DNA from: Polyangia bacterium
GTDB lineage: Bacteria > Myxococcota_A > Polyangia > Palsa-1104 > SHYY01
Direction: 5' to 3'
DNA length: 64,000 bases
Assembly (NCBI GenBank): GCA_036263495.1
Contig: DATAGU010000153.1
Span: forward strand, 4,611 to 68,610
Shown here piece after piece: positions 1,521 to 61,977 of the stretch. Every line of letters starts with the position of its first letter. Position 1 is the stretch's first letter. Under the pieces are notes generated by a model that worked only from the letters and a program-made list of their open reading frames with translations, searched no databases and was not told where the DNA came from. A program made the translations under genes and the position numbers.

Positions 1521-1699
1521 AAATGCCTCCGGGCTCGAGTCTGTGCGTTTTGCCCCCCCGGAGGCTTGATGTGCGCCGCGTGCGGGCGGGTGCAATCGTC
1601 GCTGGCGCGTTTTTCCTGAGGTGGTGGCTGGGGCCTGGGTGGGCATCGGCCGTGCACAGGGTCGATCGAGCCGTCTTCGGCGGCGAAAGGAGGCCCTGT

Positions 1700-26950: not shown

Positions 26951-27065
26951 GTGCCACGATCCGCGTCTTCAGAGAAGCGCGGCTCCGCCCACGTCGCCAG
27001 GCCATGCCCCACCGCCATGCGATGGTCAGGAGAGTGAGAGTCTAACGAGCTGGCAGAAAGGCATG
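26951..27065 (-). pseudogene. Duplicated toxin leader plus the first ~18 toxin codons, fused directly upstream of the GNAT gene
   Basis: 27006-27060 matches 29062-29120 and 61932-61975 (..catgcgatggtcaggagagYgagagtct..). It encodes MAWRRGRSRASLKTRIVAH (compare MALRRWRTLSCIRQHSL of the intact toxin), then shifts frame into GNAT. Confidence 0.5.
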
Positions 27066-27094
27066 TTTCGCGGGAGCGGGCGTGAGTGCGGGCG

Positions 27095-27673
27095 TTACTC
27101 GCCGACCGGCTTGAAGTAGGCGCCGACCAGGCCCTTGTCTTCGACCAGCGCCTTGAACTCGGCGGAGACCAGGTCGTGAAGCAGGCACTGCTTGCATTTG
27201 AAGAGATGGTGGCCGTCGGTGCTGCCGGGTTTGAAAGCATACTCTTCGACGATCATGATTTCCCCATCGGAATACCGCCGGACCTTCGAGCGCTCTTCAT
27301 CTAGGCAATCGACGATGTCGAGTATGTTCACAACCTGGAAGCGCCCAGGCCCATCGTGGGCGAGTGGTAAGAGTTCAATCCCGTCGCCGATAAGGGGTGC
27401 CAAGACCTCTGCCGCGCGATTTGAGAGAGCCAGACCATGACCCATGAGACCGATGAAGTCGACGGGCTTGCCGCGATTCTGCCGCACTGTGGCCCGCGTC
27501 CACTCCATGGGCACGGGTTCCCACCAGTCTGCACAGCGTACGCCCTCTGACAGCCTCCCGAAGATTGGAGACCATCCGCCAGGCCGGGATCCTAGAACGG
27601 TCAGCAGGTCATCGTGCTTATCTGGATTTGGATCCAGACGAAAAATCTTCGGCGGTGGAGAACTTTGGATCAT
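27095..27673 (-). CDS. Putative immunity protein for the adjacent AHH-nuclease toxin
   Basis: The ATG overlaps the toxin's TGA as ATGA (27670-27673). 192 aa, no signal peptide. Homologous 3' fragments recur at 59398-59652. Confidence 0.5.
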   Translation of the reverse strand: MIQSSPPPKIFRLDPNPDKHDDLLTVLGSRPGGWSPIFGRLSEGVRCADWWEPVPMEWTRATVRQNRGKPVDFIGLMGHGLALSNRAAEVLAPLIGDGIELLPLAHDGPGRFQVVNILDIVDCLDEERSKVRRYSDGEIMIVEEYAFKPGSTDGHHLFKCKQCLLHDLVSAEFKALVEDKGLVGAYFKPVGE

Positions 27674-29061: not shown

Positions 29062-29135
29062 GCTTCACCTCGATGCGATGATCGGGAGAGCGAGAGTCTA
29101 GCGAGCTGGCACCAAGGCATGTTTCGCGGTGCAGC
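29062..29135 (-). promoter_or_regulatory. Conserved 5' leader of the toxin gene (three copies in the window)
   Basis: The ~75 nt upstream of the toxin ATG are near-identical to 27006-27065 and 61932-61985. Confidence 0.4.
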
Positions 29136-29171: not shown

Positions 29172-29470
29172 ATGGTGGATCGACCATGTCGACATGATCG
29201 CAGGATATGTCGACATGGTGGATCGACCATGTCGACATGGTCGCGGGATATGTCGACATGGTCACGGGATATGTCGACATGGTCGGGGGATATGTCGACA
29301 TGGTCGGGGGATATGTCGACATAGTCGCGGGATATGTCGACATAGTCGCGGGATATGTCGACATAGTCGCGGGATATGTCGACATGGTCGCGGGATATGT
29401 CGACATGGTGGGTCGACTATGTCGACATGGTCGCGGGATATGTCGACATGGTGGATCAACCATGTTCACA
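29172..29470. repeat. 21-bp tandem repeat array (~14 units, consensus ATGTCGACATGGTCGCGGGAT) containing the palindrome ATGTCGACAT
   Basis: Direct reading shows a near-perfect 21-nt periodicity. All six frames are open (heptapeptide artefact ORFs MSTYPAT and YVDMVAG). Confidence 0.9.
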
Positions 29471-38126: not shown

Positions 38127-40016
38127 ATGGATATGGACAGGAGTTCTTGGATGAGCTGTCGTTCCCTCCGGGCCCTGGCGGCGTTCGCCCTGGTGCCTGC
38201 GCTCGGCGCCTGCCTCGACGTGAACCCGGTGCAGGACGATTTCAAGATCACGTCCAACGTGGTCGACTGGCGGGACGAGGTGATCTACCAGCTGCTGGTC
38301 GACCGGTTTGGCAACGGCGACTACAACAATGATCAGGGCGTGGACCCGAGCGGTCTGGCGCGCTATCAGGGCGGCGACTGGCAGGGGGTGATCGATCACC
38401 TCGACTATCTCGAGGCGCTCGGCGTGACGGCGCTCTGGATCTCGCCCGTGATCCGCAACGTGGACACCGACGCCAACGTCGATGGCTACCACGGCTACTG
38501 GGCGCAGGACTTCACGCTGACCAACCCGCACATGGGCGACCTCGCCAAGCTGCGCGAGCTCGTGAACACGGCGCACGCGCGGGGCTTCAAGGTGATCCTC
38601 GACATCGTCGCCAACCACGTCGGCCAGCTGTTCTACTACGACATCAACGGCAACGGCTTCCCCGACGAGACGCTGTATGGCTCGGGCGGCGACTCGACGG
38701 AGGTGCAGCGGGTCACGGAGTATGACCCGGACTTCAACCGGAACGGCCGGATCCAGGCGCGCACGTCGCTCGGCGAGTCGGGCGACGCCCAGATCCGCTT
38801 CATCTATCTGCCCGAGATCCATCGCATGCCGCCCATGCCGATCGAGTTCCAGAACCCGAACTGGTACTACCGGCGGGGCCGCACGGTGCACTTCGACCCG
38901 TACGTGGATCCGTTCAACCCGGCGCGCAGCTGCGACGCGCAGTGCGCGCTCGCGCAGACGCTGTATGGCGACTTTCCGGGGGGGCTCAAGGACGTGAACA
39001 CGGACCGCCCGGACGTGCAGCGGGCGTTCGTGGACGTCTACATGCGCTGGGTGGAGCTGGCCGACTTCGATGCCTTCCGCATCGATACGCTCAAGCACGT
39101 GGACCACCCGTTCTGGGAGTACTTCGCGCCCCAGATCCGCGCCCGCACCAAGGCGCTCGGCAAGAAGAACTTCTTCATGTTCGGCGAGGCGTTCGACGGC
39201 CGGGACGACCTCGTGGGGAGCTTCACGACCGGGACCAAGCAGGTGGATTCGGCCTTCTTCTTCCCGCAGAAGTTCGCGGTCATCGACCGGGTCATCAAGT
39301 ACGGCCAGGAGGGCACGACGTCGATCGAGAACCAGTTCCGGGCGCGGCTCAACTTCTACGGCCGTCAGCCCAAGGACAACGGGCCCGTGGCCGCCGACGG
39401 AACGCCGCTCACCACGCAGCAGCTCATGGTGAACTTCCTCGACAATCACGACATCGCCCGCTTCCTCTATCAGTACAAGGGGGCGGACGCGATCCCGGCG
39501 CTGCACCAGGCGCTGACGTTCCTCTTCACCGAGGACGGCATCCCCTGCGTGTATTACGGCACGGAGCAGCAGTTCAGTGGCGGCAACGACCCGGCCAACC
39601 GCGAGCGCCTGTGGGACTCGGGCTACAACACCACGGGCGAGACGTTCCGCTGGATCCGGACGCTGTCGGACATGCGCAAGAAGTTCCGCCCGCTGCGCCG
39701 CGGCAACCTGGACATCCGCTGGTCGACCCCGCGCATCGGTGACGAGAGCGACGCCGGCATCTTCGCCTTCGAGCGCAACGACGGCGGCAAGCGGGTGCTG
39801 GTGGTGATGAACGTCAACACCCGGCACGCGTCGTCGACGCAGGCGCCCGATGGCTCGCGCATGACCCTCAGCTTCCCGCCCGGGACGGTGCTGGTGAACG
39901 TGCTCGGCGACAACGACATCGCGCAGACGGGCTTCGATGGTTCGGCGGTGATCACCGTGCCGCCGCGCACGACCCGGGTCTATGTGGCGCAGGAGGATCG
40001 GGACGGGATTCCGTAG
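38127..40016 (+). CDS. Alpha-amylase family (GH13) lipoprotein
   Basis: Lipobox VPALGAC; DIVANHV, AFRIDTLKHV, FGEAFDG and LDNHD motifs. Confidence 0.85.
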   Translation: MDMDRSSWMSCRSLRALAAFALVPALGACLDVNPVQDDFKITSNVVDWRDEVIYQLLVDRFGNGDYNNDQGVDPSGLARYQGGDWQGVIDHLDYLEALGVTALWISPVIRNVDTDANVDGYHGYWAQDFTLTNPHMGDLAKLRELVNTAHARGFKVILDIVANHVGQLFYYDINGNGFPDETLYGSGGDSTEVQRVTEYDPDFNRNGRIQARTSLGESGDAQIRFIYLPEIHRMPPMPIEFQNPNWYYRRGRTVHFDPYVDPFNPARSCDAQCALAQTLYGDFPGGLKDVNTDRPDVQRAFVDVYMRWVELADFDAFRIDTLKHVDHPFWEYFAPQIRARTKALGKKNFFMFGEAFDGRDDLVGSFTTGTKQVDSAFFFPQKFAVIDRVIKYGQEGTTSIENQFRARLNFYGRQPKDNGPVAADGTPLTTQQLMVNFLDNHDIARFLYQYKGADAIPALHQALTFLFTEDGIPCVYYGTEQQFSGGNDPANRERLWDSGYNTTGETFRWIRTLSDMRKKFRPLRRGNLDIRWSTPRIGDESDAGIFAFERNDGGKRVLVVMNVNTRHASSTQAPDGSRMTLSFPPGTVLVNVLGDNDIAQTGFDGSAVITVPPRTTRVYVAQEDRDGIP

Positions 40017-40039
40017 TGAGTCTTTCCGGGGTGTGATGT

Positions 40040-42331
40040 ATGCGGCGAGTGTTGCTTGTCCTGGCCGCCTCCCTCGTGGGGGGCGGCTGTACCGAGGCGC
40101 CCCCACCTGAGAAGGTGCCTCGGGTGTGCAGGTTGGAGGCGTGGTACAGACCGGCGCGGGCCGAGGCCAACCCGAACCTCGATCTGACGGCGCAGGAGGC
40201 GCGGCGGCCGGAGCTCCTCGGGAGCTGGAACGGATGGAAGCGCCCGGGGCTCTTGCGCTGGGAGAAGCGCGTGACGCGCGATGGGACGGAGTGGCGCCGC
40301 GCGGTGATGAACCTGCCGCCCGGGACGTATGAGTACGGGATCCGTCTCGGCCAGCACTTCGTCCTCGACGAGACCAATCCGCAATCGACCTTCGTCACGG
40401 ATCCCCTGGCGTCGCCGGAGAGCGAACCGGTGACCTATGGGGTGGAGGTCTCGCGGATCGAGGTCGAGGATTGTTCCAAGCCGGTGCTGTACGTCGACGC
40501 GCTGCAGACGGTCGGGAGCGGGCTCGAGCTGCGCGCCGGGCTCCAGCCGGGGCGTGAGGGGGGGGCGCTGGATCCCGCCTCGTTGCAGTGGGAGTTGCGG
40601 CGCGGCCGCGAGCAGTTGCCGGCGGGGAGCCTGCAGCTCACGACCGAGGGCGACCTCATCACGCTGCGGGCCGCGGGCCTGGCGCCGGGCAAGTACACCC
40701 TCGCGCTCGAGGGGGCGGACCGGGAGGGGCGGCGCGCGGCACGCACCACGGTCAGCGCCTTTGTCGAGGCGGACGGGGGCGAGGGGGTGCGGCCGCTCGG
40801 CGATGGCCTCGTTTATCAGCTCATCGTCGATCGGTTCAGGAACGAGAACGGGGCGCTCGCGCCGCCCGACCTGCCGGGGGACCGCGCGGGCGGCGACCTG
40901 GCGGGTGTGCAGGCGGCGATCGAAGCGGGGTACTTCGAGCGGATGGGGGTGACCACGCTGTGGCTCTCGCCCCTGTACCAGAACCCGGCGGGGCGGCGGC
41001 TCGGGCGGGATGGTCGGCTGTACGAGGCGTACCACGGGTACTGGCCGAGCGAGCCGCGGTCGGTGGAGACGCGCTTCGGCGGCGAGGCGGCGCTCGACTC
41101 GCTGATCGCGGCGGCCCATGCGCGCGGCGTGCGCATCGTGGCCGACGCGGTGCCGAATCATGTTTACGAGTCGCATCCTTATTATCTCGCGCACTCGCGC
41201 CTGGCGAGCGACGTGTCCGCGAGCCCGGACCCCACGGCGGCGAGCTGGTTCAACGACGGCCCGAGCAAGTGCATCTGCGGTTACTCGCCGTGCGGCTGGG
41301 ACCAGACCTGCTGGTTCGACCGGTACCTGCCGGACTTCAACTGGCAGAACCCCGCGCTCGAGGACATCGGGGCCGAGGACCTCGTCTGGTGGACGAATCG
41401 CTTCGATCTGGATGGCCTGCGCATCGACGCGGTGCCGCTCATGCCGCGCGCGGCGACGCGGCTCATCAACCGCCGGGTGCGCCAGTCGGTGCGGCGGTTC
41501 GGGCTCGATGGGCTCCTCATCGGCGAGACCTACACCGGGCCCGGGGACCTCGGGCGCTCCGAGATCCGCGCCTACCTCGGCCTCAACTTCGATGGGCTCG
41601 ACAGCCAGTTCGACTTCCCGCTCATGTGGGCGACGCGCTCGGCGTTCGCCTTCGATCAGCTCGGGCTCGACGATCTGGAAGGGGAGGTGGAGGCGGGGGA
41701 CCGCGCGTGGGCCGGGTCGGGGGCGACGATCGCGCACATCATCGGCAACCACGACACGACGCGTTTCATCTCCGAGGCGGCCGGGGACGCGAACGTCGAT
41801 CCCTGGCTCGAGCCGCCCCCCCAGCCGACCGTGGACGGGCCCTACCTGCGGCACTTCCTGGCGATGACGTTCATGCTCACCCTGCCCGGGCTGCCGGTGA
41901 TATATCAGGGCGATGAAGTGGCCCTGGCCGGAGCGGGCGATCCGGATTGTCGGCGCGTGATGCCGGATGTCCTCGGGACCCTGCCGCCACGCCAGGCGGC
42001 GATGCTCGACAACGTATCGCGCCTCGGGCGGCTGCGCCGCTGTCTGCCGGCGCTGCGCCGCGGCACGAGGCAGGTCCTCTACAAGGATCGCGACCACTTG
42101 ATCGCGCTCCTTCAGCCCCCGGCGGGCGCTTCCGGGGGGCCGGCGCTGGTCGTGCTGGCCCATGGTCGTGCCCAGGGGGCCATCCCCATCCCGGGGATCC
42201 CTGCCGGGCGCTATCGCGACGCGTTGTCGGACACGCGCATCGAAGCGTCATCTACGACTTCGACTGTATTGAATGTAGCCCCCTGGACGGCTGCGGTCTT
42301 TCTGGAGGAAACCAGCCCATGCCACGAATGA
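40040..42331 (+). CDS. Alpha-amylase family (GH13) lipoprotein with an N-terminal E-set/CBM48-like domain
   Basis: LVGGGC lipobox; DAVPNHV, GLRIDAVPLM, IGETY and IGNHD motifs. Confidence 0.85.
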   Translation: MRRVLLVLAASLVGGGCTEAPPPEKVPRVCRLEAWYRPARAEANPNLDLTAQEARRPELLGSWNGWKRPGLLRWEKRVTRDGTEWRRAVMNLPPGTYEYGIRLGQHFVLDETNPQSTFVTDPLASPESEPVTYGVEVSRIEVEDCSKPVLYVDALQTVGSGLELRAGLQPGREGGALDPASLQWELRRGREQLPAGSLQLTTEGDLITLRAAGLAPGKYTLALEGADREGRRAARTTVSAFVEADGGEGVRPLGDGLVYQLIVDRFRNENGALAPPDLPGDRAGGDLAGVQAAIEAGYFERMGVTTLWLSPLYQNPAGRRLGRDGRLYEAYHGYWPSEPRSVETRFGGEAALDSLIAAAHARGVRIVADAVPNHVYESHPYYLAHSRLASDVSASPDPTAASWFNDGPSKCICGYSPCGWDQTCWFDRYLPDFNWQNPALEDIGAEDLVWWTNRFDLDGLRIDAVPLMPRAATRLINRRVRQSVRRFGLDGLLIGETYTGPGDLGRSEIRAYLGLNFDGLDSQFDFPLMWATRSAFAFDQLGLDDLEGEVEAGDRAWAGSGATIAHIIGNHDTTRFISEAAGDANVDPWLEPPPQPTVDGPYLRHFLAMTFMLTLPGLPVIYQGDEVALAGAGDPDCRRVMPDVLGTLPPRQAAMLDNVSRLGRLRRCLPALRRGTRQVLYKDRDHLIALLQPPAGASGGPALVVLAHGRAQGAIPIPGIPAGRYRDALSDTRIEASSTTSTVLNVAPWTAAVFLEETSPCHE

Positions 42332-42873
42332 AGACGTATTGGCTCGGTCTTGCAGCCGTGATGATGATCGGGTGCGGGTTCGGTTCCACGGGATCGATAG
42401 GGCCGGACTTTGGTTTCGAGCCGGATCCCGTGCCGGGAGGAGGGGGCAGTGGCAGTGGCAGCGGTGGCTACTACGGCGATGGCGGCTTCGGCGGTCGGCT
42501 GGACCAGGGTTTCGGCTCGCCGGACGCCGGGGTGCAGGCGAACAGCTGCCCCGAGACGGAGCGGCGCTGTGCCTGGGAGTTCGTCTATTCCGGCGTCGGG
42601 AACGAGAGCACGGTGGAGGTGCTCGGCGACTATCGGCCCAATGGCTTCGTGGTCGGGGACCCGCTGGTCTTCACCGGGCAGAGCTGGCGCACGGCCGTGA
42701 CCATCCCGTGGAATACCCAGGTCCTCTATAAGTTCCACATCGTCTATCAGGACCAGACCCAGCAGACCATCCCGGACCCGCTCAATCCGAGGAAGGTGGA
42801 TGACGGCTCGGGTGGGTTCAATTCGGTCATTCCCGGCATCACCTGCGCGCAGTGGATTTGCCCTGGGGGATAG
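42319..42873 (+). CDS. Lipoprotein with a glycogen/starch-binding (AMPK-beta/CBM48-like) E-set domain
   Basis: GGAGGA sits 9 nt before ATG 42319 (which overlaps the previous stop). MIGCG lipobox, Gly/Ser linker, then WEFVYSG...VEVLGDY...W..V.IPWNTQVLYKFHIV. Confidence 0.5.
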   Translation: MPRMKTYWLGLAAVMMIGCGFGSTGSIGPDFGFEPDPVPGGGGSGSGSGGYYGDGGFGGRLDQGFGSPDAGVQANSCPETERRCAWEFVYSGVGNESTVEVLGDYRPNGFVVGDPLVFTGQSWRTAVTIPWNTQVLYKFHIVYQDQTQQTIPDPLNPRKVDDGSGGFNSVIPGITCAQWICPGG

Positions 42874-42957
42874 CCACGAGGTCCTATGTGACAGGTAGGC
42901 AAATCTAAGAGCGGGTACGCTTTCCTAGTTGCAATCCAGGCAGAAAAATGATTTGAA

Positions 42958-42978
42958 CAGCGACGTTCCCTGCGTCGC
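42958..42978 (+). terminator. Possible hairpin after the CBM48-like gene
   Basis: AGCGACG ttccctg CGTCGCT is a 7-bp stem with a 7-nt loop. Confidence 0.25.
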
Positions 42979-43095
42979 TTGATCGGTGCTGCGGCCGCGG
43001 GCCGTGGGTAGTCCTTCATGAAGGTTTTCCGGCGGTGCGGCCCTATCGCGCGGCCGGCTCCGTCCAAGCTGGAACCTAGGACATCAGGAGGTCGT

Positions 43096-45624
43096 ATGAA
43101 TCGGTATGTTCGTTATCTGATGGTAGCGTCCCTGGTCGGTGTGCTGCCGCTCGGCTGTAAGGCGGGAAATGGCGGAGGCCAGGACGGAGGAGCGGACCTT
43201 GGGGGGGGCAACCCAGACCAGGCCAGCAGCGCGACGTTCGTGCGCCTCCATTACAGCCTGGGGAACAACCCGGGCCAACTGAGCGACTGGGGCGTCTACT
43301 GGTTTGGCGCCGGCTCCACCTCGCCCGACTTCAACAACTCGCCCAAGTTCAGCCAGGTCGATAACTTCGGTGTCTACCGCGACATCGAAGTCACCGACAC
43401 CAACGCCTTCCTGGGCCTCATCCCGATCATCTGCAACAACGGCAGCTGCAGCCGCAGGGACGTCCAGACCGAGGTGCGCTACGCCGACCTGCCGGCGGTC
43501 CAGGGGTCGGCCAACATCCATGAGGCGTGGATCGTTCAGGGCCGCGCCGTGTCGATCACCCGGCCCGACCTCACCCTGCCGCAGTATCGGATCTTCCGGC
43601 CGAGCGAGTTCATCGATCTCGGCAACGGCTCGGTCCGCCTGACGTTCCGCGTGGCCCCGGGCTCGACGGGCACGGTGTCGTACGGCACCTCGCAGACCAC
43701 GCTCAATCAGACGGCCACCTGGACCGCGGCGAACGACATCAACAAGAACGGCCTGGTCATCAGCGGCCTCACGCCGGGCACGACGTACTACTACCGGATC
43801 AACACGTCGCTGGTCTCAGGGACCCAGACCTACACGGATCAGAGCCCGGTGCAGAGCCTGACGCCCATCTCCTTCTCGACCGTGAGCGACGCGGCCGATT
43901 GGGCCGGGTGGGGCAACAGCTCGCTCATGTACCAGATCTTCGTGCGCACCTTCGCCGACGGCGGGAGCACGAAGGCGGTGACCGACAGCCGCACGCAGAG
44001 CGGTATCGACCCGGCCACGCGGGACGGCGTCGGTGACCTGGTCGGGCTGCGGAACACCCTGCCGTATCTCAAGGATCTCGGCGTGGACGCGATCTGGATG
44101 ACGCCGGTGTTCAAGGCCCGGAGCTACCACGGCTACGATACGACCGACTTCTACGACATCGATCCGTCGGTCGGCACGATCCGGGACTTCGTCGACCTCA
44201 CCGAGGCGGCCCACGGGCTCGGCATCCGCATCATCGTCGACTTCGTCATCAACCACGTGGCCGACGTGAACCCCTGGTTCACCGCCGCCCTGAACCCGAG
44301 CGATCCCGAGTACGCCACCTATCGCGACTGGTTCGTCTACTCGGACGACTACGAGAACATCCTGACCGACCCGCACCCCTTCGACTCGTCGGCGGTCATC
44401 TGGGCGTGCCGCAACTACCGCTGCTACCACCAGATCTTCGGCTCGTCGATCCCGGAGCTCAACTTCCATAACCCGGTCGTGCGCGCCAAGATGAAGGACA
44501 TCGCCAAGACCTGGCTCGAGCGCGGCGCCGACGGCTTCCGTCTCGACGCCTCGAAGCACATCGACCAGTTCGACGAGAACAACGGCATCGCGTACGCGCA
44601 GCACGGCACGCACGTCTGGTGGAAGGAGTTCAACTACTACGTGAAGAAGCAGGTGACGACGCGTCCGGCGAGCGCCGCCAACCTGGGACAGGTGATCCTG
44701 GCGGGTGAGAACCGGTACGACGCCTTGAATCAGTATCAGTTCATGATTCCTTATGCCGGCGACATGGACTCGCAGTTCGACTTCCCGTTCCGTACCGCCC
44801 TCAGCAACCTCCTGAACGGTCAGACCGGGACCGGCTCGGACTTCATCGCCTACATCAACCAGGTCCAGATCGACTCGGGTCTGCCGACGAACAATGGCAA
44901 CACGAACCACTTCTATCAGCGGTTCCTGTCGAACCATGACCTCGATCGGCCGGCCAGCCAGTTCGCCTCGCTCGGCGGGGCGCAGCTCACCGGTCTCCTG
45001 AGGCTGGCCGCGAGCGCCGTGTTCACGGTGCCCGGCATGCCGGTCATCTACTACGGTGAGGAGTTCGGCAAGCAGGGCCAGCGCGACATGTTCAACGGCA
45101 TCGGCGGCTATCCGCGCGATGAGTTCATCCGCGAGCCGATGAGCTGGTTCCAGAATCTGACCTTCACCGGCAACCAGCAGACTTCGTACGACATCGACTT
45201 CAACGCGACGAACACCGCCAACGCCACGCTGCGGCAGGGAGACCCGCTGAATGGGGCGGGTGTCACCTCGGCGCCGAACCCCGACTACCGCTTCATCAAG
45301 TTCATGCAGGCGAACGACCCGAACTCCTGGGCGGCGCAGCGGAATGACCCGAACAGCCTGTACAGCTACTACAAGAAGCTGGTCCAGGTGCGGAAGGCGA
45401 CCCCGCTCCTCACCGACCCGACCGCCACCAGGGCGACGGTGACCAACTCCACCTCCCTGTACGAGTTCCGGGTGACCAAGGCCACGCAGTCGCTGTCGGT
45501 GGTGATGAACCGCACCAGCAACCCGCAGACCGTGACCCGGCCGACCACGTCCACGGACCTGCTCACGAACACGACGAACACTTCGTTCACCGTGCCGCCC
45601 TACGGCACGCTGATCCTGCAGTAG
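43096..45624 (+). CDS. Large alpha-amylase family (GH13) lipoprotein with N-terminal carbohydrate-binding / Fn3-like domains
   Basis: AGGAGG precedes ATG 43096. LPLGC lipobox; FVINHVAD, GFRLDASKHI, LAGE and LSNHD motifs. Confidence 0.85.
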   Translation: MNRYVRYLMVASLVGVLPLGCKAGNGGGQDGGADLGGGNPDQASSATFVRLHYSLGNNPGQLSDWGVYWFGAGSTSPDFNNSPKFSQVDNFGVYRDIEVTDTNAFLGLIPIICNNGSCSRRDVQTEVRYADLPAVQGSANIHEAWIVQGRAVSITRPDLTLPQYRIFRPSEFIDLGNGSVRLTFRVAPGSTGTVSYGTSQTTLNQTATWTAANDINKNGLVISGLTPGTTYYYRINTSLVSGTQTYTDQSPVQSLTPISFSTVSDAADWAGWGNSSLMYQIFVRTFADGGSTKAVTDSRTQSGIDPATRDGVGDLVGLRNTLPYLKDLGVDAIWMTPVFKARSYHGYDTTDFYDIDPSVGTIRDFVDLTEAAHGLGIRIIVDFVINHVADVNPWFTAALNPSDPEYATYRDWFVYSDDYENILTDPHPFDSSAVIWACRNYRCYHQIFGSSIPELNFHNPVVRAKMKDIAKTWLERGADGFRLDASKHIDQFDENNGIAYAQHGTHVWWKEFNYYVKKQVTTRPASAANLGQVILAGENRYDALNQYQFMIPYAGDMDSQFDFPFRTALSNLLNGQTGTGSDFIAYINQVQIDSGLPTNNGNTNHFYQRFLSNHDLDRPASQFASLGGAQLTGLLRLAASAVFTVPGMPVIYYGEEFGKQGQRDMFNGIGGYPRDEFIREPMSWFQNLTFTGNQQTSYDIDFNATNTANATLRQGDPLNGAGVTSAPNPDYRFIKFMQANDPNSWAAQRNDPNSLYSYYKKLVQVRKATPLLTDPTATRATVTNSTSLYEFRVTKATQSLSVVMNRTSNPQTVTRPTTSTDLLTNTTNTSFTVPPYGTLILQ

Positions 45625-45631
45625 CCTCGTC

Positions 45632-45653
45632 GCGGGGGAGTCTCTTCACCCCG
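45632..45653 (+). terminator. Possible hairpin after the amylase gene
   Basis: GCGGGG-gagtctcttca-CCCCGC; no U-tract follows. Confidence 0.25.
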
Positions 45654-45839
45654 CCCGCCTGACGTTCCCCACGACCCAATGACCGGATACACCGCCGGCG
45701 GTTTCGGCCGCCGGCGGTGACTCTTTCGCAGGACGGTGCCGCGCGTCGGCGCTCAGGCTCTCATCTTCACAGGCCATGACGTCCGCTTGACAGATGAAGG
45801 GCGGTGCCGTCCGATCACCAGAACCACGTTCTCTGGAGA

Positions 45840-46475
45840 ATGACCATGTCGATGCCCCACGTATCCTCTCGCCCGTCGCGGTTGCGCCATGCCTGGGTGA
45901 TGGCCCTGATGGCGCTCGCCGCCTTGCCCGGTACGGCCTGCCACCGCTATGTCGTCGTCAACACGGCGGATCCCCTGTACGGGGCGCGCAACTTCATCAT
46001 CGAGCCGCTCGCCTTCAACAATCTCTCGGTCGGACGCCTGCCGGAGGAGGTGTACCTGTCCCGCAAGGATGCGCAGCAGCAACAGAGCTGGCAGATCGAC
46101 AAGGGCGAGACGGCGCAGACCTACTTCGCGCAGGTCACGCAGGCCGCCGGTGCCTTCGGCCTCCAGATCCAGCCGCCCCCTCCGCCAGGGCCGGGCTATT
46201 TCATCGTGCGGCCGTCGGTGTCGCAGTTCGAGCCGGGGAACTTCAACTACTTCGTCAACATCCCGACCCAGATGAGCATCGTGCTCGAGATCTTCACGCC
46301 CGATGGGCGACGGGTGGGTCTGGAGGCGATGTCGACGCGCGTGCCGGCCACGCTGGCCAACCCGTCGAGCGGCGGCCGGATGCGCCAGGCGGGGGGGCAG
46401 CTGGGCTATGAGACGGCGGTCTACCTCGCTCGCCGCGCGGGTGTGCGCCGTCCCAACGGGGCGCTGGTGCGGTAA
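45840..46475 (+). CDS. Hypothetical lipoprotein
   Basis: GGAGA precedes ATG 45840. MTMSMPHVSSRPSRLRHAWVMALMALAALPGTAC lipobox. Confidence 0.5.
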   Translation: MTMSMPHVSSRPSRLRHAWVMALMALAALPGTACHRYVVVNTADPLYGARNFIIEPLAFNNLSVGRLPEEVYLSRKDAQQQQSWQIDKGETAQTYFAQVTQAAGAFGLQIQPPPPPGPGYFIVRPSVSQFEPGNFNYFVNIPTQMSIVLEIFTPDGRRVGLEAMSTRVPATLANPSSGGRMRQAGGQLGYETAVYLARRAGVRRPNGALVR

Positions 46476-46482
46476 GGGGGTG

Positions 46483-47190
46483 TCAGGCGCCCCGCCGCCG
46501 GAAACGGAGGAAGGCGGCCCGGCTGGGGAAGACGGTGGTGAGCAGCATGGCGACGAGGAGGCCGCCCACGAATCCTCCGAGGTGTGCTTCGTGGGCGACC
46601 CCGGTGGGGGCGCCGCCGCTCCCGGCCAGGAAGAAGAGGTCCGTGCCGGCCGCGAGGACGGCGGCGGCCGCCGCTTGCAGCGGGGAGATGGGGTAGGCGA
46701 GGGGCCAGGCGTAGGCGTCCGGGACGTCCCAGCGGAAGGCGAGGAGGCAGTAGGCGCCGGCCACGCCGCTGATGGCCCCGGAGGCGCCGATCATCGGGAG
46801 CCCTTCGGGATTTTGCAGGGCATAGGCGAGGGACGCCGTCGCCGCGGTGATGACGAAGGTGATGAGGAGCCAGCCGTCGCCGGCCGCGCGCGCGAGCAGG
46901 CTGCCGAAGAACCAGAAGAAGATGACGTTGTGCAAGAGGTGCTTGGCGTCGGCGTGCGCGAAGACCGGGGTCCACAGGTGGGCGAGCCCGAGCCAGCCGG
47001 AGACGTCCGAGGGCGCGTGGCGCAGGACCTTCCAGGAGGCGAAGAACTCGTCGGGCTGGAGGGCGAGCGCCTGGCTCCAGCCGAGGTTCCCGAGTGTCTC
47101 CACGGCGAAGGCGAGGACGAACGACGCCGTGAGGAGGACGACAGACCACGTCTCCCATGATCGTGACGGGCGAGACCGGCGGCGGGTCAT
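46483..47190 (-). CDS. Rhomboid family intramembrane serine protease
   Basis: GASGAISGV (GxSG) and HLGGF (catalytic His) motifs within 6 TM helices. Confidence 0.8.
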   Translation of the reverse strand: MTRRRSRPSRSWETWSVVLLTASFVLAFAVETLGNLGWSQALALQPDEFFASWKVLRHAPSDVSGWLGLAHLWTPVFAHADAKHLLHNVIFFWFFGSLLARAAGDGWLLITFVITAATASLAYALQNPEGLPMIGASGAISGVAGAYCLLAFRWDVPDAYAWPLAYPISPLQAAAAAVLAAGTDLFFLAGSGGAPTGVAHEAHLGGFVGGLLVAMLLTTVFPSRAAFLRFRRRGA

Positions 47191-47264
47191 GTAGACAAAT
47201 CTAGTGCAGGAACCGAGAAGTCCTGCCGGGAATCCGTCGACGTGTGTGCCTGCGCATCAGCGTG

Positions 47265-47603
47265 AGAGACGTGGCCACGGGGCCATTCGACATCGCCATG
47301 AGGCCATTCGACGTGGCCACGGGGCCATTCGACGTCGCCATGAGGCCATTCGACGTGGCCACGGGGCCATTCGACGTCGCCAAGAGGCCATTCGACATCG
47401 CCAAGGAGCCATTCGACATCGCCACAGAGCCATTCGACATCGCCACGGGGCCATTCGACGTCGCCATGAGGCCATTCGACGTGGCCACGGGGCCATTCGA
47501 CATCGCCAAGAGGCCATTCGACATCGCCAAGGAGCCATTCGACGTCGCCACAGGGCCATTCGACATCGCCAAGAGGCCATTCGACGTCGCTACCAGGCCG
47601 GAC
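47265..47603. repeat. 21-bp tandem repeat array (~16 units, consensus GCCATTCGACRTSGCCAYGRG), related to the 29.2-kb array
   Basis: Perfect 21-nt periodicity, GACGTC/TCGAC cores, 13/21 positional identity with the array A unit. It is intergenic between NUDIX (stop 47632) and rhomboid (start 47190). All frames are open, giving artefact ORFs PFDVATG and DVEWPLG. Confidence 0.9.
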
Positions 47604-47631
47604 CTCGCGGCGACGGCCGGACAGGGCCGGG

Positions 47632-48120
47632 TCAATGGGGGGTGTGGCCGCCGGGCGGAAGGGCGGGCAGGGGATCGCCTTCGCTGGCGAGGAGTGTGAG
47701 CGGATAGATGGGGGCGCCGGCGGCGACATGGCGGAAGAACGCCTCGACCTCGGGGCTGCGTAGACGCAAGGTCGCGAGCTCCTCCAGGGTCACCCAGGCG
47801 GCGCCGAGGGATTCGGCATCGGGGGTCTGTTTGGGAGGGGTGTCATCGGCGGGGCGGGCGAGGAACACGGCGCGTACGCGAGCACTGTGGGGCCGAGGGC
47901 TATGCTCGATGCGGACGAGGCCCTCGATCACGATGGGGATGCCGGCCTCCTCGAGGGTCTCGCGCCGCGCCGCGGTGAGCAGGTCCTCGCCTGGTTCGAC
48001 CCGTCCGGCGGGCAGATACCAGGGCTGTCCGCGCTCGCGCTCCTGCACCACGAGGAACCGGTCGCCGCGCCGGACCACCACGAGGACGACGAACCAGGTG
48101 GGTATGGGTTCGCGTGCCAT
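47632..48120 (-). CDS. NUDIX hydrolase
   Basis: GRVEPGEDLLTAARRETLEEAGI is the Nudix box (GX5EX7REUXEEXGU). Confidence 0.75.
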   Translation of the reverse strand: MAREPIPTWFVVLVVVRRGDRFLVVQERERGQPWYLPAGRVEPGEDLLTAARRETLEEAGIPIVIEGLVRIEHSPRPHSARVRAVFLARPADDTPPKQTPDAESLGAAWVTLEELATLRLRSPEVEAFFRHVAAGAPIYPLTLLASEGDPLPALPPGGHTPH

Positions 48121-48176
48121 GTCGGGCACCAGTTTACTACGCCGGTCCTCGGTGGAGTGTGAGGTGTGGGGCGGGA

Positions 48177-48527
48177 TCAGCGAGTGCGCCAGGCGGCGAT
48201 GAGGGCGAGCAGGCCGCCGAGCACCATGAGGAGGAAGCTGGCGGCGCCGGCGTAGAACCAGGGCATGACGGCGCGCCGCTCGGATTCGTGGAGGCGCTCG
48301 TGCAGGGGGACCGGCGAGAGCCACCACCGTGGCGGCAGGGCGCGGCGGGCGAGGAGGCGGCGGCGAAGCTGGACGTGATAGAGGATGCTCGCCGGGATGC
48401 CCGCGCTCGCACCGAGGGCCAGCAGCGCGAGGCCGGTGAAGAACTGCAGGTCCCAGGGCAGCCCGAACACGAACGCGGTCGTGCCCAGGCCGAGCAGGAT
48501 GGCCAGCACGATGGCGAGCTCGCCCAT
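48177..48527 (-). CDS. Small membrane protein (about 3 TM helices)
   Basis: MGELAIVLAILLGLGTTAFVFGLPW...; divergent from the HD-GYP gene. The start is uncertain (alternative Met at 48608). Confidence 0.35.
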   Translation of the reverse strand: MGELAIVLAILLGLGTTAFVFGLPWDLQFFTGLALLALGASAGIPASILYHVQLRRRLLARRALPPRWWLSPVPLHERLHESERRAVMPWFYAGAASFLLMVLGGLLALIAAWRTR

Positions 48528-48606
48528 GGGGCGAGAGGTAGCGCGGTGCAGGGGAAGGAGCAAGCCTGGCCTCATCAGGCGATGAGACGAGGATATAATC
48601 GCGTCC

Positions 48607-50235
48607 ATGTCGCTCTTCCTTCGTGTCCCCCAGCCGAGCGGCCCGAGCCGGGTCTTCGAAGTCGCCCCCGGCGCCACTTCGATGGTCGGCCGGGGTCCCC
48701 AGTGCCAGATCCAGCTCGCCGACGAGAGCCTGTCCCGCACCCACTGCCTGTTCGGCTGGGAGGGCGACGAGCCCTACGTCGAGGACCTCGGCTCGACCAA
48801 TGGCACGGTGGTCAACGGGCTGGCGGTCAAGCGCCAGCGCCTGACGAGCGGCGACGTGGTGCGGCTCGGTCCGACGGTGTGCATCACGGTGTCGCGCAGC
48901 GATGTGCCGCAGGCGGCCGGCGGCCGGCCGCAGGGCCTGGTGGCGGCGCCGGTGCGTCCCGCCGAGCCCATCGACACCTCCGCCGTGCGGCTCAAGCGCC
49001 GGGTCGACATGAGCAAGACGGCCATGTTCACCGCGGTCGTCCCCGCGGCGCCGCCGGAGCTCACGCGCCTGCAGCGCGATCTCGCGACCATCTACCGCGT
49101 GGTCGACCTCTTCACCACCGAGCACGATCTGAGCCGCCTCTTCCGCGTGGCCATCGACACCATCATGGAGGTCACGGGCGCGGACCGCGGCGCCATCGTG
49201 ATGCGCGAGGACGAGGACGGGCCGCTCGCCACCGTGGCCTCGTGCAACCGCTTGTTCGACGGCCCCGGCGCCACGGTGACGGTGTCGCGCGCCATCCTCG
49301 AGGAGGGGCTCAAGGGGCTCTCGCTCATCACCGACAGCGCCTTCCGCGACGAGCGCTTCCGCGCGCGCGCCTCGGTGATGCTGCAGAACATCCACGCCGC
49401 GATGTGCGTGCCCCTCGAGAGCCACGACAAGGTCCTCGGCGTGATCTACGTGGACAGCCTGGCCAGCGACCGGCGCTTCCTCGAGACGGACCTCGAGCTG
49501 CTCACGGCCATCGGCCGTCAGGCCGGCATCGCCATCCAGCGCGCCGTCTACCTGCGGCAGACGCGCGACCTCTTCTACAGCACGATCAAGACCCTGGCCA
49601 TGGCCATCGAGGCCAAGGATCGCTATACCCGTGGCCACTCGGAGCGCGTCACCCAGCTGAGCGTGGCCATCGCCGAGGCCATGGAGCTCGACGCCGAGGT
49701 GGTGGACACGGTGCGGCTCGCGGCGCTGCTCCACGACGTGGGCAAGATCGGGGTGGCCGAGGCGGTGCTGAACAAGCCGGGCGGGCTCACCGACGAGGAG
49801 TACGCCGCCATCCAGGCCCACCCCACGATCGGGGCCCAGATCGTCCAGCACGTGCCCAAGATCGGCCGCGTGCTCGAGGGCGTCAAACACCACCACGAGA
49901 AGTGGAACGGCAAGGGCTATCCGGATCGCCTGAGCGGCGAGGACATCCCGCTGACCGCCCGGATCATCGCCGTGGCCGACGCCTATGACGCGATGTCGTC
50001 CCACCGCGTGTACCGCAAGGGGCTCAACGAGGAGGTGGTGTTCGAGGAGATCCGACGCAACGCCGGGATCCAGTTCGATCCCACGTGCGTCGACGCCTTC
50101 TTCCGCGCGGTGGAGAGCGGGCGCATCGCGCGGCCCCTGCAGCTCCTCGCCGAGCAGGCCTCCTTCAAGGATCTGCTCAAGCCGCCCGAGAACTCCGATG
50201 TCCAGGGGGTCAAGCCGCCCCGGGACATGGGGTAG
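48607..50235 (+). CDS. FHA-GAF-HD-GYP domain protein (probable c-di-GMP phosphodiesterase/signalling protein)
   Basis: FHA domain (GRGPQCQIQLADESLSRTHC...GSTNGTVVNG), a central GAF domain, and HD-GYP (HDVGK...HHEKWNGKGYP). Confidence 0.85.
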   Translation: MSLFLRVPQPSGPSRVFEVAPGATSMVGRGPQCQIQLADESLSRTHCLFGWEGDEPYVEDLGSTNGTVVNGLAVKRQRLTSGDVVRLGPTVCITVSRSDVPQAAGGRPQGLVAAPVRPAEPIDTSAVRLKRRVDMSKTAMFTAVVPAAPPELTRLQRDLATIYRVVDLFTTEHDLSRLFRVAIDTIMEVTGADRGAIVMREDEDGPLATVASCNRLFDGPGATVTVSRAILEEGLKGLSLITDSAFRDERFRARASVMLQNIHAAMCVPLESHDKVLGVIYVDSLASDRRFLETDLELLTAIGRQAGIAIQRAVYLRQTRDLFYSTIKTLAMAIEAKDRYTRGHSERVTQLSVAIAEAMELDAEVVDTVRLAALLHDVGKIGVAEAVLNKPGGLTDEEYAAIQAHPTIGAQIVQHVPKIGRVLEGVKHHHEKWNGKGYPDRLSGEDIPLTARIIAVADAYDAMSSHRVYRKGLNEEVVFEEIRRNAGIQFDPTCVDAFFRAVESGRIARPLQLLAEQASFKDLLKPPENSDVQGVKPPRDMG

Positions 50236-50252
50236 AGGGGCCCCGAGGTCCT

Positions 50253-50840
50253 GTGCCGAAGAGCGGCGCGAGCGAGCGCGAGCAGGTCATCGACATCCTG
50301 GCGTCGTCCTTCGAGACGAACCCGAGCACGCTCTGGGTCGTGGGTCCGGGGCCGGAGCGGGCGCGCCGGATCCGGCACCTGATGGACTACGCCTACCGCT
50401 GCGGCGAGGCGCAGGGGCGGATCTGGTGCGCCCCGCCTGAAGAAGGGCTCGCCGCTGCCATCGTCACGCTCCCGCGTCGACCCGCGGCGCTCCTGGGGGC
50501 GCTCTCGCGGAACCTCTTCTTCATCGGGAAGGTGACGGGCCTCGGGCGACTCGGGGCCGTGCTGCGGCGCGAGCGCTACATCCGGAGGCAACACCCGGCG
50601 ACCGATTTCGCGTACCTCTGGTTCATCGGCGTGCGGCCCGAGCATCAGTCGCGCGGGCACGGGCGGCGCCTGCTCCACAGCGTGCTCGCCTGGGCCAGGG
50701 AGCGCTCGCTGCCGCTCTATCTCGAGACGTCGGTGGCCCGGAACCTCGCCTTCTATCGCGCGGCCGGGCTCGAGATCTATCACCAGTGGGACAGCGAGCT
50801 GTGCGGCTTCCCGTTGTGGTTCCTGCGGAGCCCTGCCTAG
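50253..50840 (+). CDS. GNAT family acetyltransferase
   Basis: GTG start at 50253. RGHGRRLLHSVLAWARERSLPLYLET motif. Confidence 0.65.
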   Translation: MPKSGASEREQVIDILASSFETNPSTLWVVGPGPERARRIRHLMDYAYRCGEAQGRIWCAPPEEGLAAAIVTLPRRPAALLGALSRNLFFIGKVTGLGRLGAVLRRERYIRRQHPATDFAYLWFIGVRPEHQSRGHGRRLLHSVLAWARERSLPLYLETSVARNLAFYRAAGLEIYHQWDSELCGFPLWFLRSPA

Positions 50841-50846
50841 CGGGCA

Positions 50847-53800
50847 TGGACGCCTCGCCTTCCGTTGGCCGGCGCTACCGGCTCCTCGAGCCGCTCGGCC
50901 GGGGTGGCATGGGGGTGGTCTTCAAGGCGCTCGATCGACTGACGGGGCAGCGGGTGGCCCTCAAGCGCATTCGCATTTCGCCGGCGACGGGGAGCCCGGG
51001 GCGTGGGGCGGAGCCTCTGTCCCGCCGGGTGAGCCACTTCGCGAGCGAGAGCACGCTGACGCCGCGCCCGAGGCCCGACGCGGCTTCGGGAACGGAGGGG
51101 GGCGGGGCGAAGACGGAGCCCACCGTGCCCGAGTCCCTCCGCCTGGCGCTCGCCCAGGAGTTCCGGACCCTGGCGTCGCTGCGTCATCCCCACATCATCA
51201 GCGTCCTCGACTACGGCTTCGACGACGAGCGGCAGCCGTATTTCACGATGGAGCTGCTCGAGGGGGCCGTGCGCCTCGCCTCCGGACCCGAAGGCCCCGA
51301 GGGAACGGGAGGCGAGGGGATCCCCGAGCCCTTGCCGGCGCGCATCGGGCTCCTTCTTCAGGTGTTGCAGGCGCTCACGTACCTGCATCGCCGGGGGGTG
51401 CTGCACCGTGACCTCAAGCCGGCCAACATCCTGGTGGTGCAGTCGGCCGCCGGGCCCCAGGTGAAGTTGCTCGACTTCGGGCTGGCGTTGCCGCGGCGCA
51501 AGGAGGGCGACGCCCGGGGGCAGGTCCTCGGGACGGTGGGGTACATCGCGCCCGAGGTGGTGCGGGGCGAGCCGGTGAGCGAGGCCGCGGATCTCTTCTC
51601 GCTCGGGGTGGTGGCCTACGAGCTCCTCACCCGCCGCCATCCGCTCCTGCCCCGTCCGAGCAGCACGCTCCCGGTGGGGGAGGCGTGCCTGGAGTTCGAC
51701 TTCGACGGGCTCGATCTGCCGTTGCCCGTGGTGGCGGTGCTGCGCCGGCTCCTCGCCCGCGCCCCGGCCGAGCGCTACGCGAGCGCAGAGCAGGCGGCGG
51801 TGGCCCTGGCCAGCGCCGGTCGGGTGCCGCTGCCGGAGGAGAGCGCGACGGTCCGGGAGAGTTTCCTCCAGGCCGCGGACTTCGTCGGCCGCGAGGCGGA
51901 GTTCGAGGCCTTGCGCCAGGCGTTGACCAGGGCCTCCGCGGGCCGCGGGAGCGCCTGGCTCGTGGGCGGCGAGAGCGGGGTGGGGAAGTCGCGTCTCCTC
52001 GACGAGCTGCGGACCTGGGCGCTGGTGGAGGGGGCCTGTGTCCTGCGCGGGCAGGCCACGAGCGATGGGGGGGCGGGTCTCGGGCTCTTCGTGGACGCGC
52101 TCCGGACGCGGTGCCTCATGGGACCTGCCGCCGGCACGGACCCGCTCGACCCGCTCGCGGCCGGTGTGCTCAAGGGGCTCGTGCCCGATCTGCCGCAGCT
52201 CATCGAGGAGGACGTGCCGGATCCGCCGGAGCTCGACGCGCAGGCGGCGCGGCTACGCCTGATGAGCACGGTGGAGCAGCTCCTGAGCGACACGCCGGGG
52301 CTGACGCTGCTCCTGCTCGAGGATCTGCAGTGGCTCGCGGCCGACGCGCTCGAGCTCCTGCAGCGGATGGTGCCGCGGCTCGGCGAGCGGCCGCTGCTCG
52401 TGGTCGGGACCTACCGCAACGACGAGCGGCCGGATCTGCCGCGGCTCCTGCCCGAGGCGTATGCGCTCCTGCTGCACCGGCTGGATCGGGCGGCGATCGT
52501 GGAGCTGAGCGCCTCGATGCTCGGCCGGGCCGGGGCGTCTCCCGGGCTGGTCGAGTTCATCGAGCGCGAGACCGAGGGCAACACGTACTTCATCGTGGAG
52601 GTGGTGCGCGCGCTCGCGGAGGAGGCGGGCTCGCTCGCGGCGGTGGCGCAGGGCCCGCTGCCGCGGGAGGTGTTCGCCGGGGGGCTGCAGTCGATGGTGC
52701 AGCGGCGGCTGCAGCGCATCCCCGCCGGGGCCCGGCCGTTGCTCGCGGTGGCCGCGGTCGCGGGGCGGCAGCTCGACCTGCGTGTCCTGGCGGAGTTCGA
52801 ACCGGAGCTCGACGCCTGGCTGCAGGGCTGCGCGGAGGCGGCGGTGCTGGAGGTCAGCGAGGCCTCGTGGCGTTTCGCCCACGACAAGCTGCGCGAGGGG
52901 CTGCTGGCGGAGCTCAGCGCGGAGACGCGGCAGGGGATCCATCGCCGCCTCGCCGAGGCCCTCGAGCGGGTCTACGGGGAGGCGCTCGAGCATGCGGCGG
53001 CGCTCGCGTATCACTTCGATGAGGCCCGGGTGCCGGGTCGGGCCGCGCGGTATGCCGCTCGCGCGGGCGCCTGGGCGGCTCGGCGCGGCGCGCTCGGCGA
53101 GGCGGTGACGCTGCTCGAGCGGGCGGTCGAGTTGTATGAGGGGCTCGGGCGCCGTGGGCTCGAGCTGGCCGAGGTGCTCTTGAATCTGGCGCGGGCGCTC
53201 CGCGGGCTCGGGCGGATCGAGGAGTGTATCGCCGTGGCCGCCCGGGTCATGGTGCTCGCCGAGCAGCCGCTGCCGGAGACGCCGCTCGAGCGACACCTGC
53301 GGCTCGTCCAGGGCCTGGTGCGCGAATTGATGGAGCGGGTGGGCGTGCCGCGACGTCTGCTCGCGCCCCGGGGGCGCCCGGGCGACCGCATCCTGCTCGA
53401 GCTCCTGTCCTCGGTGGGCGACGCGTTCTTCGTGGCCCCGGGACGGAGCGAAGAGGCGCTGCTCCTCGGGCTCCGCAACCTCCGCCTGGCCGAGGCGCTC
53501 GGCAGCGTGCCGGATCAGGTGGTGATGCTGAGCGGGCTCGGCGGGATCCTCTTCCTCGCGGGCGCGCACCGGCTGGGCAAGCTCTACCTCCGGCGCGCCC
53601 TGGCGCTGGCCGAGGGGGTGGAGGCGCCGCTCGCGCGGGCGACGTGCTACCGCCTCTGGGGCTTCATCCGCAGCATCGAGGGGGACTGGGCGGCGGCGAT
53701 CGAGGATCTGACCCGCTTTGGCAGGCTGTGTCACGAGGTGGGCGATGCGCATCAGGAGGCGGTGGCGTGGATCTGCACCGGGCAGGTGTTGCTCCTGACC

Positions 53801-61499: not shown

Positions 61500-61931
61500 C
61501 GAGACGCCGTAGGCTCTCCTATCTTCTCCCAGGCGAACGCCCGAGTCGGGGTTCGTGAGCGCCTCGATCGGACCCGGGCGCCAAGGAGCGTCGGCCTCTA
61601 CGAGGAGCGGCAGCACCGGGATGCTGGCAGCACGGGCGGCATCCACCTCGAAAGGGATCCTGTCTGAGTTCGCGGAAACCACGCCAGGCGAGATCCAGCG
61701 CGCCAGTGCCGTGATCGTTGCTGATGTTCGGTTTGATCAGCGGCGAGCCGGCGCCCGGGCTGCGCTCGCACAAGAGGACCGAGAGGTTGAAGGAGGCGAG
61801 CCGGACGGCGGCTCGGCCAGGGCGGGCATGCTCGCAGCAAGGCATCTAAGGATCACGATCACGAGCCAGCGCCAGCCGAGAGGAGAACCGCCGCGTGCGC
61901 GGGAAAGGGTCCGCCAACGTCGCCAGGCCAT
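61500..61931 (-). pseudogene. Frameshifted and internally deleted N-terminal remnant of the AHH-toxin gene family, with its conserved leader
   Basis: ORF 61737..61931 gives MAWRRWRTLSRARGGSPLGWRWLVIVILRCLAASMPALAEPP (toxin signal peptide). The shifted frame 61519..61845 contains ASFNLSVLLCERSPGAGSPLIKPNISNDHGTGALDLAWRGFRELRQDPF, which matches toxin residues ~125-175. About 230 bp are missing relative to the 28.7-28.9 kb region. Confidence 0.6.
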
Positions 61932-61977
61932 GCTTCACCTCCATGCGATGGTCAGGAGAGCGAGAGTCTTCTCTGGA

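Follow-up and report, generated by a model that had tools for sequence, protein, structure and literature searches.

The sequence analysed here, referred to as the window, is a stretch of 64 kb with a G+C content of 68.8%. Its feature of interest is a tandem array of 21-bp units, called array B, that lies between the genes for a NUDIX hydrolase and a rhomboid-family intramembrane protease. Read along the minus strand, the order is the NUDIX stop codon, 34 nt, array B, 64 nt, the hexamer TAGATT, 7 nt and the ATG of the rhomboid gene. The other neighbours are an FHA-GAF-HD gene, an acetyltransferase gene and several alpha-amylase genes, and the GC content around the locus stays at 0.68–0.72. The closest relatives of the rhomboid protein are 78–81% identical to it, and a protein from a Sandaracinaceae MAG is 47% identical. 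Together with the alpha-amylases, this places the source as an uncultured member of the Polyangia close to Sandaracinaceae. The coordinates are collected in Table 1.

The hexamer TAGATT is part of the motif CTAGATTTGTnTnCATGAC (47188–47206, minus strand), which is found directly before the rhomboid ATG and is kept in the window and in four other contigs (L160, L161, L162 and L163; at ca 5001, 1085 and 930 in the first three). As read from the sequence, TAGATT in this motif suggests a putative −10-like element of a leaderless rhomboid transcript. Scans of the locus for sigma-70 consensus promoters and for terminators found none.

Table 1. Features of the array B locus, of array A and its surroundings, and similar arrays on other contigs (positions in the window unless a contig is named).
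Feature	Position	Strand	Basis or remark
Array B, 21-bp minisatellite	47268..47597	.	TRF, register listing, column counts; identical in L001
Two 126-bp (6-unit) higher-order blocks, 47325-47450 and 47451-47576	47325..47576	.	self-identity
NUDIX hydrolase gene	47632..48120	-	Pfam PF00293; C-terminus and stop conserved in relatives (protein alignment)
Spacer from NUDIX stop to array B	47598..47631	-	partly alignable with relatives L160, L161 (GCCGC..GAGGTC..CCTG)
Unique 64-nt spacer, array B to -10-like hexamer	47204..47267	-	no counterpart in relatives
-10-like TAGATT, within CTAGATTTGTnTnCATGAC	47198..47203	-	conserved in relatives
Rhomboid-family intramembrane protease gene, downstream of array B	46483..47190	-	PF01694
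133-aa ORF with PFD[IV]Axx heptads, JGI gene call	47298..47699	+	codon score, NUDIX antisense overlap; judged most likely spurious
Candidate ORF PFD[IV]A[TKM][GRE]	47244/47298-47699	+	called by JGI
Candidate ORF ATSNGPV	47201-47635	-	open frame
Candidate ORF DVEWPxG	47187-47729	-	TGA overlaps rhomboid ATG as ATGA
Array A, 21/22-bp units ATGTCGACATGGTCGCGGGAT	29186..29452	.	TRF; possible distant relative of B
Dispersed element, ~70-110 nt, three copies 86-93% identical	26986-27073, 29032-29130, 61902-61969	read on -	
Polymorphic-toxin module: 463-aa protein with C-terminal AHH (HNH/EndoVII) nuclease, then Imm11	27095-29061	-	
Intergenic 21-bp array, L150	2615-2765		CC[AG]TTCGACAT- or TCGACATCGC-type core
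Intergenic 21-bp array, L136	4520-4657		CC[AG]TTCGACAT- or TCGACATCGC-type core
Intergenic 21-bp array, L167	~1430-1690		CC[AG]TTCGACAT- or TCGACATCGC-type core
Intergenic 21-bp array, L166	4000-4360		CC[AG]TTCGACAT- or TCGACATCGC-type core
Intergenic 21-bp array, L007	966-1077		CC[AG]TTCGACAT- or TCGACATCGC-type core
Intergenic 21-bp array, L050	6021-6153		CC[AG]TTCGACAT- or TCGACATCGC-type core

The initial annotation had placed a 21-bp tandem array between these two genes, and this is borne out by the closer inspection. TRF calls a repeat at 47268–47590 with a period of 21, 15.4 copies, 85% matches and 0% indels, and a listing in register gives 15 full units at 47283–47597, ahead of which stands a partial unit, GACGTGGCCACGGGG, starting at 47268. 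The unit reads CCATTCGAC[A/G]T[C/G]GC[C/t]A[C/T/A][G/A/c][G/A][G/A]G. According to the column counts, 14 of the 21 positions are invariant, and the variation is confined to positions 10 (A/G), 12 (C/G), 15 (one T) and 17–20. A 16-nt core of the unit has 15 matches within the array and 2 outside, the chance expectation being 3.1 per window. The annotation had also listed GACGTC and TCGACA as palindromic cores. The former is present, together with CGACGTCG, in the G-variant units, while TCGACA is not a palindrome. A 10-bp palindrome, CGTGGCCACG, is found in four units and nowhere else in the window.

Shifting the array against itself by 21, 42 and 126 positions gives identities of 84.5%, 88% and 91%, respectively, and the longest stretch repeated exactly within it, at 47316 and 47442, measures 60 nt. 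A higher-order periodicity, here of 42 and 126 bp, is a typical sign of block duplication, and the rise of the self-identity at these two shifts thus indicates that the array has also grown by blocks of two and six units.

It has to be considered whether array B could be an artefact of the assembly or a chimera, or whether its copy number could be misassembled, given that tandem repeats longer than a read are the classic cause of collapsed or expanded assemblies and that JGI short-read metagenomes make up two of the three assemblies that support the array. However, the independent assemblies agree with each other in sequence or spacing. The JGI contig Ga0400235_0001395 (L001, sample 3300037473) corresponds to positions 39967–51080 of the window with 7 mismatches, none of them inside array B, and no indel. 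On a 1955-bp contig from another JGI sample (3300045391), the genes have identical coordinates, and NUDIX and rhomboid are likewise 441 bp apart. The array called from the window is hence present base for base in a second assembly, and a third has equal gene spacing. In addition, the unit variants limit the longest exact repeat to only 60 nt, which short reads of 150 nt are judged able to bridge. Array B is not an assembly artefact, and an error of this kind, also in the copy number, is extremely unlikely. The array length is equal across the three assemblies, which are three only and represent near-identical populations.

Coding and RNA signals

We have considered whether array B encodes a heptad-repeat protein, either on the plus strand (PFD[IV]A[TKM][GRE]) or in one of the two minus-strand ORFs (ATSNGPV or DVEWPxG). 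There are several observations in favour of this. Of the six frames of the array, five are open and two have a GC3 of 0.83, and the plus-strand ORF has been predicted by the gene caller in two JGI samples, 3300037473 and 3300045391. The DVEWPxG ORF ends in an ATGA overlap with the start of the rhomboid gene, and bona fide proteins with similar heptads exist, such as the CHAT-domain proteins P0127 and P0054 with their SRPFDVP inserts. As to the ATGA overlap, it could be due to chance.

The claim that every frame is open did not hold for plus-strand frame 2, which has a TGA in each ATGAGG unit. More importantly, in arrays made from random 21-mers of the window, at least five frames are open in 90% of the cases, and a phase with at least 6/7 G+C is found in 83–87%. 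Both the open frames and the GC-rich phase are thus expected by chance and are uninformative on coding. In a codon model derived from 26 long ORFs of the window with high GC3, the best frames score 0.02 bits/codon (PFDIATG, plus strand) and 0.27 bits/codon (ATSNGPV, its antisense shadow). As real frames have a mean of 0.57 and a 5th percentile of −0.03, and off-frames a 95th percentile of 0.03 and a 99th of 0.24, the two scores are at the boundary between real frames and off-frames, which makes the codon evidence ambiguous.

Other properties of the array speak against translation. The changes from unit to unit hit the first, second and third codon positions alike, and five wobble positions never vary; in the best frame, the 14 invariant positions take in all but one of the would-be wobble sites. 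Direct reading of the sequence gave no Shine-Dalgarno element before any of the candidate starts, no counterpart of the ORFs is found in the relatives L160 and L161, and the plus-strand ORF runs for 67 nt antisense into the conserved C-terminus of NUDIX. Furthermore, the closest relative at the DNA level, an array on contig L150, has a TGA in the PFD frame.

The plus-strand ORF was also compared with protein collections. A word-indexed search of 5.8 billion proteins yielded no match, and the ORF is absent from the protein cluster collection by exact look-up. A phmmer search against 1.84 billion representatives, on the other hand, gave 998 matches. These are heterogeneous, with only 3–4 residues per heptad in common and no common architecture, and comprise CHAT-domain proteins carrying SRPFDVP or SRPIDxA inserts, RNA methyltransferases with RKPFDRE tails, low-complexity ORFs of eukaryote-like character and clearly spurious ORFs over other 21-bp arrays. 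Matching of repeat against repeat inflates the E-values, and the matches are therefore not taken as homology; with their differing heptads and architectures, we rejected them as a protein family.

The TPR-CHAT proteins P0127 and P0054 have 9–15 tandem heptads (SRPFDVP, SRPIDxA) in the linker that precedes the CHAT domain. Minisatellites of 21 bp with this type of sequence thus also expand in frame within real genes. Gene calls that are spurious are found over unrelated arrays as well (P0061 on L167 and P0083 on L166).

Taken together, neither codon usage, start and RBS context, conservation, synonymous bias nor a coherent protein family marks array B as protein-coding. The earlier view that no RBS or start context supports translation is thereby strengthened, as the array also is without a protein family and without synonymous bias and is absent at orthologous loci. 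A heptad-repeat protein is accordingly very unlikely, and the 133-aa JGI hypothetical protein is most likely a spurious gene call.

At the RNA level, the folding of array B is not unusual compared to shuffled controls (z = −1.44 and −1.12 for the two strands), and Rfam gives 0 matches at E≤1; neither a covariance match nor folding beyond the controls thus points to a structured RNA. Searches of plasmid and phage records and of viral contigs gave no match to the array. We found no terminal inverted repeats or target duplications flanking it, and its flanks are unique within the window and have nothing in common with those of array A.

Absence from related loci

Two related contigs, one from ENA (L160) and one from Logan (L161), contain the FHA-GAF-HD gene, a gene for 116 aa, NUDIX, rhomboid, a gene for 209 aa and the amylase in the same order as the window. 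Their rhomboid proteins are 78–81% and their NUDIX proteins 80–83% identical to those of the window. The spacers between NUDIX and rhomboid are 81 and 77 bp, respectively, and contain no repeat, compared to 441 bp in the window. The first ca 30 nt past the NUDIX stop can still be aligned with the relatives, while array B and the following 64 nt have no counterpart there. TRF detects no array similar to B on the contigs of the relatives. As the syntenic spacers lack the array, array B is a lineage-specific gain, and it is most likely a recent expansion that the close relatives lack.

We also considered a 21-bp repeat of two copies, which L162 and L163 have at the corresponding position, as a possible proto-repeat of array B. 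It was rejected, because it lies inside an upstream gene that is not NUDIX and its match of 13/21 positions is at chance level.

Array A and other 21-bp arrays

Array A, with a 21-bp period and 12.6 copies according to TRF, is situated some 18 kb from array B in a divergent intergenic low-GC island, between an AHH toxin/Imm11 module and a hypothetical gene. The toxin module and array A are in a stretch of lower GC content (0.59–0.66). The array starts ca 50 nt upstream of a conserved leader, which recurs twice more in the window without an array; it is the middle one of these three copies (29032–29130) that array A adjoins. On the minus strand, this dispersed element reads TAGACTCTCGCTCTCC...GGAGGTGAAGCATGGCC and comprises a −10-like hexamer, a Shine-Dalgarno element and an ATG that opens the N-terminus MA(L/W)RRWR. 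Paralogous toxin genes, whose products are possibly secreted, apparently have this leader and N-terminus in common.

The initial annotation had counted 13 of 21 positions in common between arrays A and B, which is correct with the A variant of the unit (the majority consensus gives 12), and had concluded that the two belong to a dispersed repeat family rather than being two accidents. The latter is only weakly supported. When random 21-mers of the window are compared with the B consensus in the best rotation and on either strand, 6.5% reach at least 13 matches and 22% at least 12. The plus/plus comparison (p ~0.07) is thus weak as a link. The dissimilar flanks speak against a family, the equal period adds some weight to it, and the comparison of A(+) with B(−) is the better one. 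The latter, with a single 1-nt gap, has 16 matches, CG.G.CCAT(G)TCGACAT, a number that is reached by 1% of random 21-mers (p ~0.01). Oriented in this way, the two arrays are each directed towards the gene next to them downstream, at 77 and 138 nt from its ATG. Outside the arrays, no single unit of array A or array B is present in the 64-kb window.

The window contains other repeats as well. At 13336–13450, a purine-rich 42-bp repeat (GCGAACGGAAAAGAGCGGACCCCGCAGCGGGAAACGCGATGA) in 2.2–2.3 copies has low GC (0.61) and a high GC skew. Tandem repeats of 147/294 bp and 159 bp (3.2–6.4 copies) at 24133–25459, inside a large minus-strand ORF (23764–26133), are probably protein-domain repeats.

A scan of genome contigs with a permissive pattern, TCGACRT three times at 21-bp spacing, returned at least 120 loci spread over many phyla, some of them repeats within coding sequence or of 7-mers. 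Among the matches listed, the intergenic 21-bp arrays of L007 (a Polyangiaceae MAG) and L050 (a Kofleriaceae MAG) have TCGACATCGC like array B, and the first unit of L007 agrees with B at 16 of 21 positions. A metagenome scan for two occurrences of TTCGACRTSGCC gave 38 loci, mostly two-copy coding coincidences. The arrays of L150, L136 and L124 have CC[AG]TTCGACRT[CG]GCC, which extends three bases beyond what the search required. Together with two phmmer matches that were traced back to the DNA, the metagenome scan yielded intergenic 21-bp arrays with CC[AG]TT[CT]GA[CT][AG]T cores (L150, L136, L167 and L166). The L150 array follows radA in an actinobacterium, while that of L007 is between convergent genes. 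On L166, two unit types alternate over 17 units among small HTH genes.

The arrays in the other MAGs (L007, L050, L150, L136, L167 and L166) resemble array B in having the same period and 10–16 of the unit positions, and in being mostly intergenic, but the hosts and neighbouring genes are unrelated and the rest of the unit differs. It should be kept in mind that the searches behind them were conditioned on core and period, or on a similar translation, so that the resemblance is largely built in. Given this selection and the unrelated contexts, these finds show that such arrays are common, without establishing one functional family.

In an alternative explanation, array B, array A and the similar arrays of other Polyangia would be a functional family of phased binding-site arrays upstream of promoters. 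A putative protein recognising the CCAT(G)TCGACAT core would occupy one helix face at intervals of two turns, and the arrays would act like iterons, upstream activator sites or nucleation sites of nucleoid proteins. Consistent with this are the common period of A and B and their 16 matches in the A(+)/B(−) comparison, the location of both next to promoter-like regions with the downstream gene ahead, the TCGACATCGC element in L007 and L050 with the 16/21 agreement of L007 noted above for the matches listed, the three additional core bases in L150, L136 and L124, and the fact that the core is invariant while positions 17–20 vary. However, the likeness of the external arrays stems largely from the search patterns, their contexts (radA in an actinobacterium, convergent genes in L007) are unrelated, the array is absent at the orthologous loci, and the paralogous promoters near array A are without one. 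The remainder of the window contains no single sites, and no candidate DNA-binding gene is common to the neighbourhoods. We therefore regard such a family as unlikely.

More doubtful still is a wider form of the idea, namely that Polyangia, and perhaps other GC-rich bacteria, have two-turn arrays with a CCAT(G)TCGACAT core upstream of promoters, which would tune the downstream gene as curved scaffolds or binding arrays, with A and B as diverged members kept uniform by concerted evolution.

Curvature, interpretation and comparison with known systems

The curvature of array B was calculated with two dinucleotide wedge models (Trifonov and De Santis). As a control of the implementation, phased A-tracts gave an end-to-end/contour ratio of 0.29 and unphased ones 0.996. 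The twist is predicted to be 718–725 degrees per unit by the two models, that is, two turns. As the period equals two helical turns, all units face the same way on the helix, and small bends accumulate. The calculated end-to-end/contour ratio of array B is 0.24 with the Trifonov model and 0.63 with the De Santis model, as compared to 0.95–0.98 for random segments of the window; the two models thus disagree on the size of the curvature, and GC-rich DNA is where wedge models are least reliable. When the unit is altered to 20 or 22 bp, the calculated ratio becomes 0.86–0.93, that is, near-straight. A curvature as strong as that of array B is predicted for only 2–5% of a set of 109 other 21-bp units and for 3% of units after shuffling. 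For array A, the models do not give a consistent curvature.

On the basis of the structure of array B, its absence in the relatives and its lack of coding and RNA signals, we consider it likely that array B is a non-coding, lineage-specific minisatellite that is probably neutral or nearly so. We infer that slippage during replication, or unequal recombination, multiplied a 21-bp unit within the short NUDIX–rhomboid spacer in one lineage, with additional amplification in blocks of two and six units, and that the spacer would in this way have grown from ca 80 bp to 441 bp. The array would be neither translated nor a structured RNA. Any effect it may have would most likely be architectural, either as intrinsically curved, phased DNA or as a scaffold carrying a protein on one face, and might consist in modulating the transcription of the rhomboid gene or in separating this gene from NUDIX read-through; the array ends ca 64 bp upstream of the conserved, putative −10-like hexamer. 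With the predicted in-phase curvature, curved one-faced DNA just upstream of the putative rhomboid promoter is what one would expect if the array acts at all.

Some points go against the neutral interpretation. The copy number is the same in the three assemblies, which are near-identical and three only. The invariant 12-nt block and the GCCA of the unit could reflect sequence-specific selection instead of youth. Finally, array A, with a core similarity of p ~0.01, likewise adjoins promoters on their upstream side, a hint that more than neutral chance is involved.

As a neutral or nearly neutral minisatellite, array B is a clean example of a young intergenic array of this kind in an uncultured myxobacterium related to Sandaracinaceae. 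It illustrates how a gene caller can turn a minisatellite into a hypothetical heptad-repeat protein, and it could serve as a marker for strain typing. Should it be true that arrays with a TCGACAT core form a promoter-associated family, or that the curvature affects rhomboid expression, array B would be of real interest.

A literature search on 21-bp or myxobacterial intergenic tandem repeats found nothing relevant. Array B can be compared with known classes of repeats. The units abut directly with no spacers between them, which sets the array apart from CRISPRs. Iterons and centromere-like arrays (R6K, RK2, F sopC and R1 parC) consist of direct repeats of ca 20 bp with two-turn spacing. Array B shares the two-turn direct repeats, and a bound protein would likewise sit on one face of the helix. 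Unlike them, it lacks a rep or par gene, an AT-rich unwinding element and a mobile context such as that of a plasmid or phage; the setting is that of chromosomal housekeeping genes, and the 15 uninterrupted copies exceed the typical number of iterons. Phased A-tracts upstream of promoters are similar as regards the comparable predicted in-phase bend and the promoter-like element adjoining the array, but array B has no A-tracts, and its curvature is a model prediction for GC-rich DNA. MIRUs are 46–101 bp long and form a defined family of ca 40 loci per genome, with short ORFs coupled to the flanking genes, whereas here there are two loosely similar arrays in 64 kb.

The closest likeness is to the VNTR loci of bacteria, such as the ETR and MIRU-VNTR loci of Mycobacterium tuberculosis and those of Yersinia pestis and Bacillus anthracis. 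These have in common with array B the head-to-tail intergenic units, the point variants among the units, the higher-order blocks, the presence limited to a lineage and the lack of a gene product. The difference is that the copy number of array B is so far constant, in three near-identical assemblies, while presence or absence between related genomes, as expected of a VNTR, is what the spacers of 77–81 bp versus 441 bp display. With uninterrupted head-to-tail units in the range of 10–100 bp, array B is most likely one more case of the well-known bacterial intergenic minisatellite rather than a new kind of element.
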